A stretch of 31,384 nucleotides of DNA from Patescibacteria group bacterium (GTDB lineage: Bacteria; Patescibacteriota; Minisyncoccia; JAHISW01; Tagabacteraceae), in NCBI GenBank assembly GCA_018817995.1, contig JAHISW010000046.1, positions 1 to 31,384 of the forward strand. The letters run 5' to 3'. Below the pieces are notes generated by a model. The model worked only from the letters and a program-made list of their open reading frames with translations, had not been told where the DNA came from and did not search any database. The position numbers and the translations under genes were made by a program. Positions 3,047 to 31,384 of this stretch are shown here, piece by piece; position 1 is the stretch's first letter; the number at the start of each line of letters is the position of its first letter.

Positions 3047-4111
3047 ATGAAGATAGGTATCGTGGGCCTGCCAAATGTGGGGAAATCAACGCTTTTCAAA
3101 GCCCTAACAAGAATACCGGTAGATATAAACAACTACCCTTTTTGCACCATTGAGCCGAACATTGGCATTGTTGAAATACCGGACAAAAGAGTTGACCGGC
3201 TCGCGGAAATTTTTTCATCGCGAAAAAAAATTTACGCAGTAATAGAATTTGTTGACATAGCGGGGTTGATTGAAGGAGCAGCGGAAGGACAAGGTCTTGG
3301 AAATAAATTTCTGCACCATATCAGAGAAGTTGATGCCATTATCCAAGTTGTCAGGATGTTTGAAAATGAAAAAATCATCCACGTCCGAGGGAAAATACAC
3401 CCAAAAGAAGACATCGGTATTATTAACACCGAACTGATATTAGCCGACATTGAAACCGTCCAAAAAAGAATTTCTAAGCTGGAAAAACAATCTCACTCGG
3501 GTGATAAAGACGCCATAAAACAACTAAGGATCACAAAAGAATTAGAGGAAGTTTTGAATGGAAACGACGTGTTTGAAATTAAAAAGTTTGCGGATTCGCT
3601 GGGAAAAAACGTAGATTTAATAAAAGATTTGCACTTGCTCTCGCTAAAGCCGAGTCTTTATGTTCTTAATGTTGATTCTTACGAAAAACTGGAAGAACAA
3701 TTTTCGAAATTCTCAATAGACATAGCTGACCCTAAGAATATCGCTATTGACACAAAAACAGAGGAAGAAATTTTGGAGTTGTCAGAAGAGGAAAAGAAAG
3801 AATTAAAACTGAAATCTCAATTGGAAAAACTGACAAAAGGAAGCTACGATCTTTTGGGACTAATGACGTTTCTCACTTCCGGAGAGGACGAAACTCGCGC
3901 GTGGACGATTCCCAAGAACTCAACGGCGCCCCGCGCCGGACGCGCCATACATAGCGATTTCGAAAACAAATTTATACGCGCCGATGTTATTCCGTACGCC
4001 AAACTAATAGAAGCTAGGACAATGGAAGAATCCAAAAAAAGGAATTTTGTCCAAACAGTCGGCAAAAACTACATCGTCCAAGACGGCGACATAATAGAAT
4101 TTAGGATATAA
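3047..4111 (+). CDS. ychF: Redox-regulated ATPase YchF (Obg family)
   Basis: GIVGLPNVGKSTLF, NYPFCTIEPN, FVDIAGL, GQGLGNKFL and a C-terminal TGS domain (YIVQDGDII). Confidence 0.97.
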   Translation: MKIGIVGLPNVGKSTLFKALTRIPVDINNYPFCTIEPNIGIVEIPDKRVDRLAEIFSSRKKIYAVIEFVDIAGLIEGAAEGQGLGNKFLHHIREVDAIIQVVRMFENEKIIHVRGKIHPKEDIGIINTELILADIETVQKRISKLEKQSHSGDKDAIKQLRITKELEEVLNGNDVFEIKKFADSLGKNVDLIKDLHLLSLKPSLYVLNVDSYEKLEEQFSKFSIDIADPKNIAIDTKTEEEILELSEEEKKELKLKSQLEKLTKGSYDLLGLMTFLTSGEDETRAWTIPKNSTAPRAGRAIHSDFENKFIRADVIPYAKLIEARTMEESKKRNFVQTVGKNYIVQDGDIIEFRI

Positions 4112-4131
4112 AACAAAAAACCCCGCAACCC

Positions 4132-4164
4132 TATCTGTGGGACATCGGATATCCCACAAATACA
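4132..4164. repeat. REP-like palindrome A, downstream copy
   Basis: TATCTGTGGGACATCGGATATCCCACAAATACA. Positions 4136-4164 are identical (29 bp) to 4630-4658. Confidence 0.92.
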
Positions 4165-4174
4165 AATACCGGCA

Positions 4175-4837
4175 CTAATCTATCGTAAATTCTCTGATTT
4201 GTTCAAAAGTATTTTTTGCTTTATTTTTGTTCGCACTACAGTCCTTCAAGAATTCATCATATTCATCGTAATCTTTACAATTTGACCACCGGTATGACTG
4301 AAGAAATTTTTTTGCTTTGTGCCAATTTTTAATCCCCTCTTCCTTCCATCTTGTCTCAAAAAGATCTAACGGATTCATATAAATATATTGAACAAGATAA
4401 TTTAAGTACTCGTCTCTATCAATTAAAACCGCCTTGAACTTACCTTGAAATAAAACACCGTCTCTTTCGTATTTTTCATTAAAATATTTCGTATAACCAA
4501 TTCCTAATTTTTGCATAAACTTAGAAATACCACAATCTTCCAGCTGTTCCAGTATTAAATGGAAATGATTCGGCATCAAACAACTACAATGAATCTTAAC
4601 AACTGGCTTCCTATCTTTCTCGTCAATTTTGTGGGACATCGGATATCCCACAAATACAGTGCCCTCTTCCACAATCACACGACGGAAAAGATTTATTGAA
4701 GAATTCCTGTCGTTGAAGTCTCTCAAGCCAAAAAGGAATCTACTATAATCCTTGTCTTCCATAAAAACCTTGCGCTTATCAGTTCCACGATTAAAAATAT
4801 GGTAAAAATGATTATTTGCAAATTTTGGTCTTTTCAT
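4175..4837 (-). CDS. REP-associated tyrosine transposase (RAYT; Y1_Tnp/IS200-like HUH endonuclease)
   Basis: FYHIFNRG, CLMPNHFHLIL (HUH), LFQGKFKA, YIYMNP (catalytic Tyr) and YRWS. Start moved from 4963 to ATG 4837 (MKRPKF), which has TATAAT 7 nt upstream. No tnpB is adjacent. Confidence 0.88.
   Translation of the reverse strand: MKRPKFANNHFYHIFNRGTDKRKVFMEDKDYSRFLFGLRDFNDRNSSINLFRRVIVEEGTVFVGYPMSHKIDEKDRKPVVKIHCSCLMPNHFHLILEQLEDCGISKFMQKLGIGYTKYFNEKYERDGVLFQGKFKAVLIDRDEYLNYLVQYIYMNPLDLFETRWKEEGIKNWHKAKKFLQSYRWSNCKDYDEYDEFLKDCSANKNKAKNTFEQIREFTID
4630..4658. repeat. REP-like palindrome A, in-frame copy inside the RAYT gene
   Basis: TGTGGGACATCGGATATCCCACAAATACA, whose minus strand encodes VFVGYPMSH(K). 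Confidence 0.92.
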
Positions 4838-4860
4838 TGGATTTATTATATACCCTTTTT

Positions 4861-4891
4861 TATCTGTGGGACATCCGATTTCCCACAGATA
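4861..4891. repeat. REP-like palindrome A, upstream copy
   Basis: TATCTGTGGGA-CATCCGATT-TCCCACAGATA, a perfect 11-bp outer stem starting 10 nt upstream of the RAYT -10 box. Confidence 0.92.
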
Positions 4892-4942
4892 CCAGAAGGG
4901 GTTGCGTAATTGGGAAAAGGCTGATACTATATTCTCTATAAT

Positions 4943-5383
4943 ATGGACAAGGCAAAAGAGCAATACGAAATCGGATATCTATTAAAACCGACCCTCAAAG
5001 AGGAAGATATTTCTAGTTTTCTTTTAAAATTAAGTGATGATATTACCAAAAGAAATGGTATGGTAATTTCTGAGGGAAAAACAAAAAAACAAACTTTAGC
5101 CTACCCAATCAAAAAAGAAACTTCCGCAATGTTTAATTGGATAAAATTCTCTTTGGACCCAATCTTTATAAGAGAGATCAAAGACATAATGGATGCGAAT
5201 CCTGTTGTGTTAAGATTTTTAATTATAAAAACAAAAGAAGAGAAACGAAAAGAACCGTCATCGATAAAGGTATTTTCCATCGCTAAAAAAACCGCTCAAA
5301 CCGAACAACAAATAATTGAAAAAGAGAGCGTCCAAGAAGAAGAAATTGATAAAAAAATAGAGGAGCTTCTTGGAGAAAATTAA
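4943..5383 (+). CDS. rpsF: 30S ribosomal protein S6
   Basis: YEIGYLL, LAYPIKK and VLRFLIIK. First gene of the canonical rpsF-ssb-rpsR order. Confidence 0.93.
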   Translation: MDKAKEQYEIGYLLKPTLKEEDISSFLLKLSDDITKRNGMVISEGKTKKQTLAYPIKKETSAMFNWIKFSLDPIFIREIKDIMDANPVVLRFLIIKTKEEKRKEPSSIKVFSIAKKTAQTEQQIIEKESVQEEEIDKKIEELLGEN

Positions 5384-14326: not shown

Positions 14327-14353
14327 AACTATGGAAGTTCAACTCCCATAGTT
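14327..14353. repeat. REP-like palindrome B, downstream copy
   Basis: AACTATGGAAGTT-C-AACTCCCATAGTT, 13+1+13 with one mismatch. Confidence 0.92.
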
Positions 14354-14360
14354 GATAGAA

Positions 14361-15068
14361 TCATTCTAAAATGATGTCTTTCATATTCTCTAAATTTCTT
14401 TGAGAATCTTTTAGCCAATCCTTAGTTTCCTTTTTATATTTTTCCTCTCCACCAAAAAAATCCAAAAGAAATTCTCGCTGTGTTACAGACGGAAAATTCT
14501 TTTTTTTAACATAATCAGGAAAACTACTCCATCTATAATTCTCCAAAAACTTCATTTGCCTAACTATGGAAGTTGAACTTCCATAGTTGATTAATTTCAG
14601 TGGGTTTAAGTGAATATAATACGGCAAATGCAAAATATGAGCATGCTCCTCTATTTTAACTGCTTTAAATCTACCCTGAAACAAACTCCCGACTCTCTCA
14701 TATTTCTTATTAAAATAATTTGTATATCCGGTTCCTAGCTTTTGCATAAATTTCACGATCCCTCCCTCTTTTTTCTGCATCAAAAGCAAATGAAAATGAT
14801 TCGGCATTAATGTAAAAATTAATATTTCCACGAGCAATTTTCTTGGTTTCTTTTTTTCTTTCAACTGGTCTAGGTATTGGCTTTCAACTTTCATGGTTTC
14901 GGGATTAAAATAAAAATTCATATTTGATGACAACGCCTCATCATTAAATTCAAATAAATCATGGATAAAACGAAAATAATCCTTATCGTTCATAAATATC
15001 TTTCTTTTCTCCACACCACGATTGTATATATGGTATATTTTGTTGTTTACAAATATTGGCTTCTTCAT
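14361..15068 (-). CDS. REP-associated tyrosine transposase (RAYT; Y1_Tnp/IS200-like HUH endonuclease)
   Basis: IYHIYNRG, TLMPNHFHLLL (HUH), LFQGRFKA, YIHLNP (catalytic Tyr) and YRWSS. TATAAT lies 8 nt upstream of the ATG. Confidence 0.9.
   Translation of the reverse strand: MKKPIFVNNKIYHIYNRGVEKRKIFMNDKDYFRFIHDLFEFNDEALSSNMNFYFNPETMKVESQYLDQLKEKKKPRKLLVEILIFTLMPNHFHLLLMQKKEGGIVKFMQKLGTGYTNYFNKKYERVGSLFQGRFKAVKIEEHAHILHLPYYIHLNPLKLINYGSSTSIVRQMKFLENYRWSSFPDYVKKKNFPSVTQREFLLDFFGGEEKYKKETKDWLKDSQRNLENMKDIILE
14562..14588. repeat. REP-like palindrome B, in-frame copy inside the RAYT gene
   Basis: AACTATGGAAGTT-G-AACTTCCATAGTT, perfect. The minus strand encodes NYGSSTSIV just after YIHLNP. Confidence 0.93.
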
Positions 15069-15083
15069 GCACTATAATTATAC

Positions 15084-15110
15084 AACTATGGAAGTTCAAC
15101 TTCCATAGTT
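15084..15110. repeat. REP-like palindrome B, upstream copy
   Basis: AACTATGGAAGTT-C-AACTTCCATAGTT, perfect. It is 1 nt from the -10 box (15077-15082) and 3 nt from the upstream gene's stop codon. Confidence 0.93.
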
Positions 15111-15113
15111 GAT

Positions 15114-27754: not shown

Positions 27755-30205
27755 TTATTTATTCCCGCAACATTTCTTATATTTCTTTCCGCTTCCGCAC
27801 GGACAGGGGTCGTTTCTCCCCGCCTCTCTCTTGAATATAACATTCTGTGGAACATTGCCCTGAACGGCCGGCCTAATATTCAAAATCAATTTAACAAAAG
27901 TATTTTTTATAGACAATTCCAAATCCCTAAACAATCTTATCCCTTCATTTTTGTACTCTACTAAAGGATCACGATTGCCATAAGCTCGCAATCCGACAGA
28001 AGAACGCATATAGTCCATAACCTCTAGATGGTCTATCCAGTGCGTGTCAATTACTCTTAAAAATAAATTTTTTTGCGCCTGAAAAAACTGCCCGCCTGCT
28101 GGCGAGGCAGGTCCCTCAGTAAACTCCCCTTTCTTCTTTTCCAGAATGCTCACATCTTCTCCGGCCTCCTCCAACAATTCCCTTGTTTTGTTTTCCAAAA
28201 AATCTTTATCGGCAAAAAGAATTTCTCGTCTCATATTATAAATCTTGGTGCGCTGTTTATTCATCACGTCATCATATTCAAGAATGTGTTTTCTTGCGTC
28301 AAAATTTAATCCTTCTATTTTTGATTGCGCGGACTCTATCGCCCTTGAGACCATTCTGTTTTCAAGTGGAACATCCTCAGGAACGCCTAAACTTTTCATC
28401 ATGTTTTTAATTTTTTCGGAGCCAAAAATTCTCATCAAACTATCTTCCAAAGACACAAAAAATCTGCTTTCCCCGGGATCACCCTGCCTGCCAGAACGAC
28501 CGCGCAGTTGATTGTCTATGCGACGCGCTTCATGCCTCTCTGTGCCCAAAACAAAAAGCCCCCCAAGATTCCTAACATCCTCCGCCTCCTTTTCGTTAAA
28601 AGGATTACCCCCCAAGACAATGTCAACACCACGACCTGCCATATTGGTTGCCACGGTAACCAATCCTTTCTTGCCTGCCTGAGCAATAATCTCGCCCTCT
28701 TCCTCATGATGTTTCGCATTCAGCAAACGATGAGGCACCCCTTCTTTTTTCAGCAAGGCGGAAAGATATTCGTTTTTATCAATAGAAACTGTTCCAATAA
28801 GAACGGGTTGTCCTTTTTTATGTCTTTCTTTTATTTCTTCTACTACTGCCTTGAACTTTCCTTGTTCTGTTGAATAAACTAAATCTGGTTTGTCTTTTCT
28901 TACAAGAGGTTTATTGGGGGGGACATTGACAACCTCAAGTTTATAAACCTTGTCAAACTCTTCCGCAGAAGTTAAAGCCGTTCCCGTCATCCCGGACAGC
29001 TTTTCATACATTCTAAAATAATTTTGAAAAGTAATACTGGCAAGTGTCCGCGATTCTTTTTGCACAAAAACACCCTCCTTCGCTTCAATAGCCTGATGTA
29101 AACCCTCGGACCACCTTCGCCCCGGCATTAATCTTCCGGTAAACTCATCAACGATAATAATTTCTCCATTTTTCACAACATAGTCTTTGTCTTTCTTGAA
29201 AAGAGCGGATGCTCGTAAGGCTTGATTTAAATGGTGGACATATTTAATTCCCTTTTCCGTATAAATATCCCCCACGCCCAATATTTTTTCCACTTTTTCA
29301 ATACCGTCTTCATTGACGGAAACCGCTCTTTGTTTTTCATCAACAGTAAAATGTTTATTTTCTTTAAGTTGGGGAGCAATTTTCGCAAAAGTTTTGTAAA
29401 GTTCGGCAGACTCTTCATCGGGTGCGGAAATAATCAAGGGAGTCCTGGCCTCATCAATCAAAATTGAGTCAATCTCGTCAACAATCGCAAAGTAATGATT
29501 TTTTTGAGCAATTTGCGGATTTTGGTCCGCCCCGCCAACGGCGGGGTAAGCCATACTGTCGCGTAAATAATCAAAACCGAATTCATTGTTTGTCCCATAT
29601 GTAATATCCGCCTCGTATGCTTCCTTTCTTTCACATGGCCTCAAAAATTCATGCACAACCTTAAAAGATCCAAGCGCATCACGCTCTTCATCAATATTAT
29701 TTTCAAAACTAGAGTCGTAAAGAAAACTTGAATCATGATTGATACACCCCACAGACAATCCCAAAGCATCATATATCTGCCCCATCCAGACAGTATCACG
29801 CCTTGAAAGATAATCATTGACCGTAACAACATGAACTCCTTTTCCAACTAAAGCATTCAAATAGATGGGGAGTGTCGCGGCAAGTGTTTTACCCTCTCCT
29901 GTTTTCATTTCGGTAATTCTTCCTTGATGGAGGGCTATGCCACCCAAAATCTGCGAATCAAAATGACGCTGTCCAAGCGTCCGTTTGGCAGATTCTCGAA
30001 CAACGGCAAAAGCTTCCGGTAAAATATCATCCAAAGAAACCCCTCCCTGGAGACGTTTTTTGAATTCTTTTGTTTTGTTTCTTAAATTGTCTTCGGATAA
30101 AGATTCAAAATCCTTTTCAATGTTATTTATTTTAACCACTTCTAATTTAAACTTCTTCAAAAGACGGTCATTTGAATCTCCCATGATTTTGCTTAATATT
30201 CCCAT
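27755..30205 (-). CDS. secA: Preprotein translocase subunit SecA
   Basis: EMKTGEGKT, GTNNEFGFDYLRD, IVDEIDSILIDEARTPLIIS, ATNMAGRG, RGRSGRQGDPG and C-terminal SEC-C GRNDPCPCGSGKKYKKCC. Confidence 0.98.
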   Translation of the reverse strand: MGILSKIMGDSNDRLLKKFKLEVVKINNIEKDFESLSEDNLRNKTKEFKKRLQGGVSLDDILPEAFAVVRESAKRTLGQRHFDSQILGGIALHQGRITEMKTGEGKTLAATLPIYLNALVGKGVHVVTVNDYLSRRDTVWMGQIYDALGLSVGCINHDSSFLYDSSFENNIDEERDALGSFKVVHEFLRPCERKEAYEADITYGTNNEFGFDYLRDSMAYPAVGGADQNPQIAQKNHYFAIVDEIDSILIDEARTPLIISAPDEESAELYKTFAKIAPQLKENKHFTVDEKQRAVSVNEDGIEKVEKILGVGDIYTEKGIKYVHHLNQALRASALFKKDKDYVVKNGEIIIVDEFTGRLMPGRRWSEGLHQAIEAKEGVFVQKESRTLASITFQNYFRMYEKLSGMTGTALTSAEEFDKVYKLEVVNVPPNKPLVRKDKPDLVYSTEQGKFKAVVEEIKERHKKGQPVLIGTVSIDKNEYLSALLKKEGVPHRLLNAKHHEEEGEIIAQAGKKGLVTVATNMAGRGVDIVLGGNPFNEKEAEDVRNLGGLFVLGTERHEARRIDNQLRGRSGRQGDPGESRFFVSLEDSLMRIFGSEKIKNMMKSLGVPEDVPLENRMVSRAIESAQSKIEGLNFDARKHILEYDDVMNKQRTKIYNMRREILFADKDFLENKTRELLEEAGEDVSILEKKKGEFTEGPASPAGGQFFQAQKNLFLRVIDTHWIDHLEVMDYMRSSVGLRAYGNRDPLVEYKNEGIRLFRDLELSIKNTFVKLILNIRPAVQGNVPQNVIFKREAGRNDPCPCGSGKKYKKCCGNK
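28088..28110. repeat. GC-rich hairpin in-frame in secA
   Basis: CTGCCCGCC-TGCT-GGCGAGGCAG with one bulge, encoding (G)PASPAGGQ. Confidence 0.78.
29530..29546. repeat. GC-rich hairpin in-frame in secA
   Basis: CCCCGCC-AAC-GGCGGGG, a perfect 7-bp stem encoding PAVGG. Same arms as the 1846-1862 element. Confidence 0.82.
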
Positions 30206-30212
30206 CCCGCTC

Positions 30213-30221
30213 AGTATAACA
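30213..30221 (-). promoter_or_regulatory. Extended -10 promoter of secA
   Basis: TGTTATACT lies 7 nt before the ATG. The same TGn-TATAAT layout occurs at trmD (17666-17674) and rpsP (18470-18478). Confidence 0.55.
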
Positions 30222-30222
30222 A

Positions 30223-30254
30223 AAAAATCAGCCTCTTATAAGGGGCTGATTTTT
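30223..30254 (-). terminator. Intrinsic terminator after the histone-like gene
   Basis: AAAAATCAGCCTC-TTATAA-GGGGCTGATTTTT, with an A-run giving a U-tail on the minus strand. Confidence 0.72.
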
Positions 30255-30268
30255 AAACAAAAAGAAAA

Positions 30269-30475
30269 CTATTTTTTCTTTCGGCGAACAGTCTTTCTCT
30301 TCGCAGGTTTCTTGGTTGCCTTCTTTACCGCTTTTCTCTTCGCGGGTTTTCTCTTCGCTACTTTTCTCTTCGTGGTCTTTTTCACTACCTTCTTCTTTGC
30401 TGTCTTTTTTGCCGCTTTTCTCTTTGCGGGTTTTCTCTTAGCTACTTTTTTTGCTGCTTTTTTACGTTTAACCAT
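30269..30475 (-). CDS. Lys/Arg/Ala-rich histone-H1-like basic protein
   Basis: 68 aa with no acidic residues and repeated AKRKP/AKRKA/VKK units. Has its own terminator. Confidence 0.7.
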   Translation of the reverse strand: MVKRKKAAKKVAKRKPAKRKAAKKTAKKKVVKKTTKRKVAKRKPAKRKAVKKATKKPAKRKTVRRKKK

Positions 30476-30597
30476 TTCTTATTTTTAAACTTTAGTTCTT
30501 ATTAAAACAAATATGTCGACCGCAAAATATTTGTTAACAACTCTACTTATATTTTATATTATTTTTTTAAAAAAAAGAATAAAAAAAAATAAAAAAC

Positions 30598-30639: not shown

Positions 30640-31384
30640 TTAAAATCCTATTAGTCGCGTTTCTTCTTCTAAACTAAAACCATACTTGTTATAAACCCTC
30701 TGCTTGATCATGCTTACAAGCATCATAACATGTTCGGCTTTGGCGTTTCCCAGATTTAAAATAAAACCAGCGTGGTCGTTGGAAACAACAGCGTCGCCGA
30801 TTCTTTTATTCTTCAAGCCCATATGGTCAATCAAAAAACCCACTGAAATTTTCGGCTTGTCGGCAAATTGTTTAAGTTCCGGAAACTTTTTTAGAAGACG
30901 GTCTTTGTCTACCCCTTTTCTTTTCCATTCAATATTTTTAAAAAAACATCCGGCGCAATTATAATTGGGTTTAAATGATTCCATCCTTTGTTTGGCATTC
31001 TCTTTTATTTTTTTACGAATAGTCTCGCCATCTCCTTCTTTAAAAATAAATTCCGCTCCAAGTATAATTAAATTCGAATTGTCATGGAAAATAGAACCGC
31101 GATAATAAAAATCACACTGATCCTTATTAAAATTAGAAACGGAAGCATCTGCGCAATTTAAAACTTCTACACTCCTAACACAACCGGAAATATCTTCTCC
31201 GAAAGCTCCCGTGTTCCCACATATCGCACCCCCAATAGTACCGGGGATGCCTATTGCCCACTCCAACCCTGTCAATCCAAGTTTCACCGCTTCGACCAGT
31301 AAATTAGCCAAAAGCAGACCCGCGTCAGCATAAATTTCAGAATTATGAACTAAGAATTCAGAATTAAGAATTTTTACGACAAGA
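30640..31384 (-). CDS. murB: UDP-N-acetylmuramate dehydrogenase (partial; frame open to the window end)
   Basis: GLEWAIGIPGTIGGAI.GN.GAFG, FYYRGS, AGCFFKN, HAGFILNLGNA and LEEE. Manual translation of 31312-31383 has no stop (LVVKILNSEFLVHNSEIYADAGLL). Confidence 0.92.
   Translation of the reverse strand, partial: LVVKILNSEFLVHNSEIYADAGLLLANLLVEAVKLGLTGLEWAIGIPGTIGGAICGNTGAFGEDISGCVRSVEVLNCADASVSNFNKDQCDFYYRGSIFHDNSNLIILGAEFIFKEGDGETIRKKIKENAKQRMESFKPNYNCAGCFFKNIEWKRKGVDKDRLLKKFPELKQFADKPKISVGFLIDHMGLKNKRIGDAVVSNDHAGFILNLGNAKAEHVMMLVSMIKQRVYNKYGFSLEEETRLIGF
31334..31368. repeat. 7-bp tandem tract in murB (5 units)
   Basis: ATTTCAG AATTATG AACTAAG AATTCAG AATTAAG, encoding LNSEFLVHNSE. Confidence 0.75.

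Follow-up and report, generated by a model that had tools for sequence, protein, structure and literature searches.

Why does a gene for a transposase-like enzyme carry, in frame within its own coding sequence, the same palindrome that flanks it on both sides? The question is raised by gene 1 of the 31-kb window analysed here (the whole of a 31,384-nt contig, C89, from the fragmented metagenome bin G000, which represents the 706-kb genome of an ultra-small groundwater bacterium in 95 contigs). The gene encodes a relative of the REP-associated tyrosine transposases (RAYTs), whose genes form REPtrons when flanked by cognate repetitive extragenic palindromes (REPs) (PMC2817692, PMC3479197, PMC8266576). 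The best supported answer is that the internal copy is a resident hairpin of the enzyme's own family, situated in a permissive, disordered loop of the protein and kept alike by repeated copying in place.

Three copies of one hairpin at the gene 1 locus

The features of the locus are as follows.

4175-4837, minus strand: RAYT-like HUH-Y1 transposase gene 1 (220 amino acids; HUH motif, NHFHLIL; catalytic Tyr in YIYMNP)
4136-4164, no strand: downstream hairpin copy (palindrome at 4136-4158 plus six further bases common with the internal copy)
4630-4658, no strand: internal hairpin copy, in frame (identical at 29 of 29 positions to 4136-4164)
4861-4891, no strand: upstream hairpin copy (core at 4865-4887, arms reaching 31 nt)
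4845-4850, minus strand: putative -10 box TATAAT, 7 nt before the ATG, between the upstream palindrome and the ATG

A near-perfect 23-nt palindrome was found by pattern search at exactly three sites of the window (4136-4158, 4630-4652, and 4865-4887), in agreement with the first-pass annotation, which had placed one of its three copies inside the coding sequence; the pattern had no match in any of 100 dinucleotide-preserving shuffles of the window. All three copies folded as DNA hairpins in a folding computation. The coding sequence was taken from the likely ATG at 4837 to the stop codon at 4175-4177 (the listed open reading frame (ORF), 4175-4963, begins at an upstream TTG instead), and the edge of the 29-bp downstream unit is 10 nt from the stop codon, as had been annotated. 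The internal copy codes for VGYPMSH (within ...VFVGYPMSHK...), which corresponds to residues 63-69 of the 220-residue protein, about 20 residues ahead of the HUH motif, and the 29-bp internal tract continues past the palindrome-coded residues into the following codons.

The identity of 29 bp between 4136-4164 and 4630-4658 includes about 6-7 bases outside the palindrome, on one side only, that depart from the consensus foot of the hairpin family. This foot variant is common only to the internal and downstream copies, and thus points to direct copying between these two, so that the identity is indeed explained by copying or homogenisation, as first proposed. The possibility that it had been produced by the assembly, also raised at that time, was examined with contigs from other runs: positions 3600-4871 are spanned by a 6.6-kb contig from run X2 and positions 3600-5365 by a 2.6-kb contig from run X3, which belongs to a different study, and neither contig differs in the internal or the downstream copy. 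Because these independent assemblies reproduce the copies unchanged, the layout is not an assembly artefact.

Identity and fold of the gene 1 product

The gene 1 product is assigned, from its sequence and its structure model, as a RAYT-like HUH-Y1 single-strand DNA enzyme, and is presumed to bind and cleave hairpins. The earlier assignment to this class is supported by three kinds of evidence. The Pfam profile PF01797 (Y1_Tnp) was matched by gene 1 with 34.4 bits and by the second such gene of the window (gene 2; see below) with 34.3 bits (cut-off, 23). Residues H91, H93, and Y151 are invariant in an 82-sequence alignment of relatives, and in the AlphaFold2 (AF2) model of gene 1 (predicted local distance difference test score (pLDDT), 86) Y151 is situated on the helix 142-154, which corresponds to the single, helix-borne catalytic Tyr of HUH-Y1 enzymes. 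Finally, the best PDB match of the model by Foldseek was 4ER8_A (E value, 3.9e-6; TM score by target, 0.63), which gives the model an RRM-like (RNA recognition motif) beta-sheet fold, and the next matches were the TnpA structures of ISDra2 and IS608. The entry 4ER8 is E. coli TnpA_REP (YafM) bound to a REP hairpin (PMC3479197). Note that the fold match was obtained by structure search; the family profile found no chain at an E value of 0.01 or better among the PDB sequences. The model falls below a pLDDT of 50 in one stretch only, residues 64-69, which belong to the palindrome-coded peptide.

Internal copies among relatives

A survey of RAYTs of the candidate phyla radiation for flanking palindromes that recur within the coding sequence, as suggested in the first-pass annotation, was performed with two samples: 67 full-length genes in 24 related genomes, and 78 genes from species representatives. 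By record title the second sample was mostly Patescibacteria (Azam-, Nealson-, Nomura-, Yanofsky-, Uhr-, Kaiserbacteria, and others); the taxon labels of the matches outside the Patescibacteria may stem from mis-binned short contigs, and no inference on wider spread was drawn from them. A stretch was counted as an internal cognate copy when it matched the flank palindrome of the same gene at 17 or more of 21 positions. Such copies were found in 43 of the 67 genes and in 46 of the 78 genes (89/145 overall, about 60%), and they are thus not absent from most related RAYTs, the outcome that would have spoken against a general significance of the gene 1 layout. A flank palindrome was present at 133 of the 145 genes, and gene 1 itself is flanked on both sides as in REPtrons. 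The match is specific: the coding sequence was matched at 18 or more of 21 positions by the palindrome of its own gene in 42 of 60 genes, and by that of another gene in 1 of 480 non-cognate pairs.

The internal copies (105 in total) are restricted to three permissive windows, namely, the variable loop ahead of the HUH motif (site 1; 74 copies), the loop after the catalytic Tyr helix (site 2; 22 copies), and the C-terminal tail (8 copies); the one remaining copy is a weak match in the catalytic core. The placement of the gene 1 copy in the variable loop ahead of the HUH motif holds both in the model, where residues 64-69 are of the lowest confidence, and in the family. Judged by sequence, the internal hairpin layout is an inherited, family-wide feature.

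Probable overwriting and concerted change at fixed sites

Loops with the palindrome barely differ in length from loops without it (median at site 1, 32 versus 31 residues; median at site 2, 22 versus 26 residues), which indicates that the loops were overwritten and that the hairpins are not simple insertions. At site 2 the palindrome stands in place of a WKExGI motif that is conserved in the relatives without a palindrome. Where internal arms are long, they represent the full repeat unit seen at other sites. The density of cognate copies is 1.26 per kb within the coding sequence and 0.04-0.08 per kb in the 1.3 kb on each side. Local hopping with a decay over distance was also considered, and was ruled out by this drop of about 20-fold directly outside the gene unit.

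The gene-1 clade consists of six genes from six genera (66-78% amino acid identity), in all of which the site is occupied. The outer stem is constant in the clade, the inner stem is specific to each genome, and the internal copy matches its own flanks. We regard this, at the level of sequence, as concerted evolution of the hairpins at a fixed site.

The hairpins are processed in natural populations, as the coexistence of flipped forms of the upstream copy shows. Three changes in this copy (4872 C>A, 4876 C>G, and 4880 T>G) occur together and yield the exact reverse complement of the form in the window; runs X3 and X4, from two other studies, have the flipped form only, whereas X2, a single groundwater sample, contains both. 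At site 1 a flip swaps Pro (CCG) and Arg (CGG), and the same swap is seen between relatives. Thus, the earlier idea that the enzyme could rewrite its own loop is retained in a passive sense, in that the hairpin determines which residues a disordered loop contains (pLDDT below 50) and a flip exchanges Pro and Arg, but there was no sign that the loop peptide itself matters. Of the 17 copies at site 2, 14 have C as the centre base, which is the orientation without an in-frame TGA, and none has G. No fixed relation between the orientations of the upstream and downstream copies, as read from the centre base, was seen across loci.

Paralogues and hairpin families of the genome

Gene 2 of the window shows the same architecture with a different palindrome.

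14361-15068, minus strand: RAYT-like gene 2 (235 amino acids, 49% identical to gene 1)
14327-14353, no strand: gene 2 downstream hairpin
14562-14588, no strand: gene 2 internal hairpin, in frame, coding for NYGSSTSIV just past the catalytic Tyr helix (site 2)
15083-15111, no strand: gene 2 upstream hairpin, directly adjoining a TATAAT box

In the 706-kb genome there are nine Y1 genes, which are mutually 40-78% identical in amino acid sequence, with no near-identical pair; several near-identical copies of a whole element, which would be expected of an active IS200-type insertion sequence, were not found in this genome, the closest paralogues being about 78% identical in protein. Orthologous RAYT-like clades span genera. 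All seven complete paralogues have their own, different palindrome at a flank and inside the coding sequence (two further copies are cut by contig ends), and the paralogue on contig C63 has two internal copies. The gene-1 hairpin family occupies 16 sites in the genome, and the families in general are of low copy number (5-26 sites each); the count agrees with the view, already taken in the first-pass annotation, of the palindrome as a cognate, dispersed REP-type hairpin. In the aligned family members the feet of the hairpins are themselves palindromic (TATCT...AGATA and CAAC...GTTG).

Two further observations were made on these families. A sub-family of the gene-1 hairpin, of the GTTGGATATC type, has about seven copies in G000 (contigs C84, C87, C90, C92, and C77); no RAYT with a GTTGGATATC-type foot was found in G000, and the sister genome G005 has a matching RAYT. 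At locus L161 (G000:C24:2800-4900), two paralogous genes (about 140 amino acids) stand in tandem, each followed by a composite hairpin cluster, and the clusters, about 700 bp apart, hold hairpins of three different RAYT families in an arrangement like that of bacterial interspersed mosaic elements (BIMEs).

Hairpins in housekeeping genes

About 40% of the dispersed copies fall inside long ORFs. Ten host ORFs were checked; strong Pfam domains included those of a GatA-type amidase, TsaD, GlmS, RecG, TatD, RsmA, a class-V aminotransferase, and a glycosyltransferase. In the GatA and TsaD alignments the in-frame repeats are situated in variable loops, as is the case with intragenic REPs and Rickettsia palindromic elements (RPEs). 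The earlier statement that canonical REPs are extragenic holds only with a qualification: intragenic REPs have been published (PMC3733652) and are common in this genome.

A copy of the gene-1 family occupies the same GatA loop in three genera (L171, L172, and L173 in G000, G004, and G002, respectively), each in the variant of its own genome. The GatA copy of G002 has a CCAAT apex, which recurs at six sites of G002, including the RAYT locus, and in none of four sister genomes. In TsaD (L185, L187, and L189) one loop is occupied by different hairpin families in three genera. The GatA and TsaD loops thus represent positions that are reused, or kept while their sequence is updated. Because the GatA copies track the RAYT variant, same-family copies elsewhere in the genome also appear to be overwritten, which would mean action in trans. 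A single in-frame TGA was noted in the GatA orthologue of a related genome (L179, G014:C36:707-2134).

Putative promoter overlap and a test for strand bias

In 76 of 122 relatives a -10-like box separates the upstream hairpin from the ATG; the modal distance from the end of the box to the ATG is 6-7 nt, which applies to 37 of these genes. This geometry suggests a leaderless transcript, with the upstream hairpin over the spacer and the -35 region. The earlier placement of the upstream palindrome in the promoter region is accordingly plausible for gene 1, from the TATAAT 7 nt before the ATG, but it was not called by generic scanning.

A terminator scan gave nothing above the level of shuffles, and terminator-like T tracts were not found. 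Across 56 internal hairpins there was no wobble bias towards the sense strand (10 G-T versus 18 A-C mismatches); at the gene 1 locus itself, a G-T pair allows the full stem to form on the sense strand, and on the other strand only the outer stem forms. The lack of wobble bias and of T tails, together with the leaderless -10 geometry, favours a role at the DNA level over a role in mRNA. Longer internal stems, looked for as a sign of extra selection on the internal hairpin, were not found; the internal stems are slightly shorter on average.

Proposed mechanism

What comes directly from the analysis is the layout, with its conservation and its confinement to the gene unit, the concerted change, and the natural flipping of hairpins. 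As an explanation of them, we lean, though only slightly, towards the view that the palindromes are cognate REP-type hairpins and that the internal copy is a resident that has been repeatedly overwritten in place, not a fresh insertion. The hairpins would hold fixed places over the leaderless promoter, in up to three permissive parts of the protein, and just past the stop codon, and all copies at the locus would be overwritten again and again with the current version of the hairpin, so that the sites stay and the sequence shifts in step. The copying may be a hairpin-for-hairpin replacement by the RAYT, which would cut at the foot of one hairpin and rejoin it to another, possibly assisted by hairpin-driven template switching. 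By analogy, the RAYT is the most economical copying agent because of the cut-and-rejoin chemistry of HUH-Y1 enzymes (PMC3479197). The coded loop peptide would then be carried along with the DNA element. The promoter and internal copies might also make the gene a target of its own product and so provide autoregulation, which is the least supported step.

Several results weigh against this account. About 40% of the relatives have no internal copy, from which it follows that the internal copy is not essential, and the stems of internal copies pair slightly less perfectly than those at the flanks (11.5 versus 12.3-13.3 paired positions). The 5' GTAG or CGTC tag of the REPs studied so far was found in none of the aligned family members, and the NCBIfam RAYT equivalog NF047646 was matched by genes 1 and 2 with 39.7 and 35.7 bits, respectively, under the curated cut-off of 80. 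The generic promoter scan made no call at the upstream site and found no more sites than in shuffles, the promoter positions being assigned by consensus only. The evidence for action in trans comes mainly from one gene, GatA, in three genomes. In addition, overwriting by the enzyme is indistinguishable here from repeated re-insertion into the same permissive loops, from template switching independent of the enzyme, and from gene conversion from selected flank copies.

Wider exchange and alternative explanations

In a wider form of the same account, the enzyme would exchange hairpin cassettes throughout the genome, rewriting fixed positions with the current family version in either orientation. 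We put this forward tentatively, as a possibility and not as an expectation, and the same reserve applies to its proposed extent, which would cover the enzyme's own promoter, its own coding loops, and housekeeping loops such as those of GatA and TsaD. If true, a mobile DNA hairpin would set the sequence of short segments in many proteins, a flip could exchange Pro for Arg and the reverse or, in gene 2, make a reversible in-frame stop, and the RAYT gene itself would be within the updating process that keeps its targets recognisable.

A somewhat less probable explanation, which we nevertheless take seriously, is that the hairpins are autoregulatory operators, the RAYT binding its own promoter and internal hairpins, blocking initiation or elongation, and so limiting a dangerous nuclease. 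The internal operator (roadblock) suggested in the first-pass annotation belongs here, and it would fit the position of the upstream copy at the putative promoter. It would be comparable to transposases that repress promoters embedded in their ends, and to internal operators that aid repression. This explanation would account for the upstream hairpin that adjoins or overlaps the -10-like box of the leaderless promoter in most relatives, for internal sites that are kept over deep divergence and always match the enzyme's own family, and for the confinement of the copies to the gene unit; E. coli TnpA_REP is, moreover, strongly down-regulated and auto-inhibited (PMC3479197). If true, the enzyme-bound promoter and internal copies would form a compact, self-limiting circuit for a hairpin nuclease. 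However, the internal copy is absent from about 40% of relatives and takes three alternative sites, not one, its stems are no better than those of the flanks, the RAYTs studied so far bind single-stranded hairpins and not duplex DNA, and the same hairpins are present in unrelated housekeeping genes, where such a role does not apply.

Use of the internal hairpins for rearrangement or switching, as end points for the deletion or exchange of modules or as flip switches, seems improbable to us. At gene 2, for example, TCA would become an in-frame TGA if the internal hairpin were flipped. The natural flipping of the upstream hairpin and the predominance of C at the centre of site 2 (14/17, never G) would both suit a switch, as would a relative, L032 (540-760, G014:C21), whose RAYT gene ends exactly past the site-2 hairpin with unrelated DNA beyond. 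However, this truncation is a single case, the segment identities show no clear mosaicism beyond noise, no flipped, stop-carrying allele was found among 77 matches in 41 genomes, and the centre-base bias is equally explained by purifying selection. With regard to L032, the hairpin overlaps the last codons of a convergent gene for 357 amino acids on the other strand, and the arrangement resembles a deletion with its end point at the internal hairpin. Shuffling of modules at hairpins was considered separately and rejected; segment-wise identities gave no clear mosaic pairs, one truncated gene apart.

It is still less probable that the internal and 3' hairpins act in mRNA, by translation pausing, RNase processing, or stabilisation, in which case the match to the flanks would reflect a shared RNA function. 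The sense strand does fold the full gene 1 stem through its G-T pair, and REPs of other bacteria are reported to serve as 3' RNA elements; but the 56 internal hairpins show no sense-strand wobble bias, the upstream copy is probably untranscribed if the mRNA is leaderless, T tracts are missing, and an RNA function would leave unexplained why the copies match the enzyme's own family.

A recent, one-off self-insertion, in which the enzyme moved a REP into its own gene in cis, in frame and tolerated by chance, is hardly credible. It would explain the 29-bp identity with the downstream copy, and in-frame insertions of REPs into genes are known (PMC3733652). Simple self-insertion, one of the possibilities named in the first-pass annotation, is nevertheless not supported, since the same site is occupied in all six gene-1-clade genes of different genera, homologous sites are used across the class and conserved across families, the loops have gained no length, and the neighbouring DNA within 1.3 kb carries hardly any copies. 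Finally, an assembly artefact or chance similarity, which a metagenome bin in 95 contigs might suggest, has a negligible probability in view of the empty shuffles and of the independent-study contigs that span the copies.

Relation to known systems

Among the closest known systems are REPtrons, with which the locus shares an HUH-Y1 enzyme of the same fold, a gene bracketed by a dispersed palindrome, and a separate hairpin family for each paralogue. It differs from them in that the hairpins are in frame inside the enzyme's own coding sequence at conserved sites, that nine paralogues are present in 0.7 Mb (about one per genome in REPtrons), that the families are small (5-26 copies) and without the GTAG/CGTC tag, and that the protein is about 60 amino acids longer and below the NCBIfam RAYT cut-off.

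Intragenic REPs and RPEs are in-frame repeats within genes (Di Nocera et al. 2013, PMC3733652), and like the present hairpins they are palindromes that code for short peptides in tolerant regions of conserved genes. Here, in contrast, the host gene is that of the enzyme presumed to act on the repeat, and the feature is family-wide and far denser than in adjacent DNA, with fixed-site copies that track the current variant of the genome. Another related group is that of the TIRtrons (TIRYTs), which are RAYT-like genes with untagged inverted or self-complementary flanks, some of them overlapping the gene ends ('5'ov/3'ov') (PMC3733652). Untagged flanking repeats at RAYT-like genes are common to both; copies in the middle of the gene, present here, are absent from the description of TIRtrons (Di Nocera et al. 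2013).

In the RAYT/REP literature searched (including Nunvar 2010, Bertels 2017, Di Nocera 2013, Corneloup 2021, and Quentin 2018), we found no account of cognate hairpins within a RAYT coding sequence. REPtrons and intragenic REPs, then, were already known, and it is the occurrence of cognate hairpins at conserved in-frame sites in the enzyme's own gene that we did not find in the papers searched.

The origin of phage phiX174, within gene A, and that of plasmid pT181, within repC, are cases in which an HUH enzyme nicks a site within its own gene. The likeness is that the DNA target of an HUH nuclease is in its own coding sequence, the target role being presumed in our case; the difference is that those are single, essential replication origins, whereas the present copies are multiple and optional, also occur at the flanks, and give no indication of a role in replication. 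Small flip-flop inversions flanked by hairpins occur in non-coding hairpins of plastids and in the terminal repeats of parvoviruses. There, too, one imperfect palindrome occurs in two versions, each the exact reverse complement of the other, whereas here the palindrome is situated at the promoter of a gene for a predicted hairpin-specific nuclease.

The spread and upkeep of REP hairpins by RAYTs is still unsettled, because no movement has been reconstructed in vivo. The present family offers a natural record of hairpin copying, in which each lineage has dozens of small hairpin families that are distinct from one another and go with one paralogue each. Since the intragenic positions are fixed and alignable, events of overwriting, flipping, and deletion can be counted against the protein alignment, and in such tiny genomes every hairpin copy can be enumerated. 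It also follows that, in reduced genomes, palindromes called 'extragenic' can form a stable part of the coding sequence, which bears on annotation and on loop variation in Patescibacteria.

Other repeats in the window

Two repeats apart from the hairpin families were noted in the window. A 39-bp direct repeat (positions 1016-1054 and 1642-1680, 95% identical) brackets an ORF for 183 amino acids (1058-1609). A 57-nt unit is present in four overlapping copies with a spacing of 15 nt (30309-30449), within a candidate plus-strand ORF for 167 amino acids (29985-30488); this repeat lies between the minus-strand ORFs 27755-30205 and 30640-31311.

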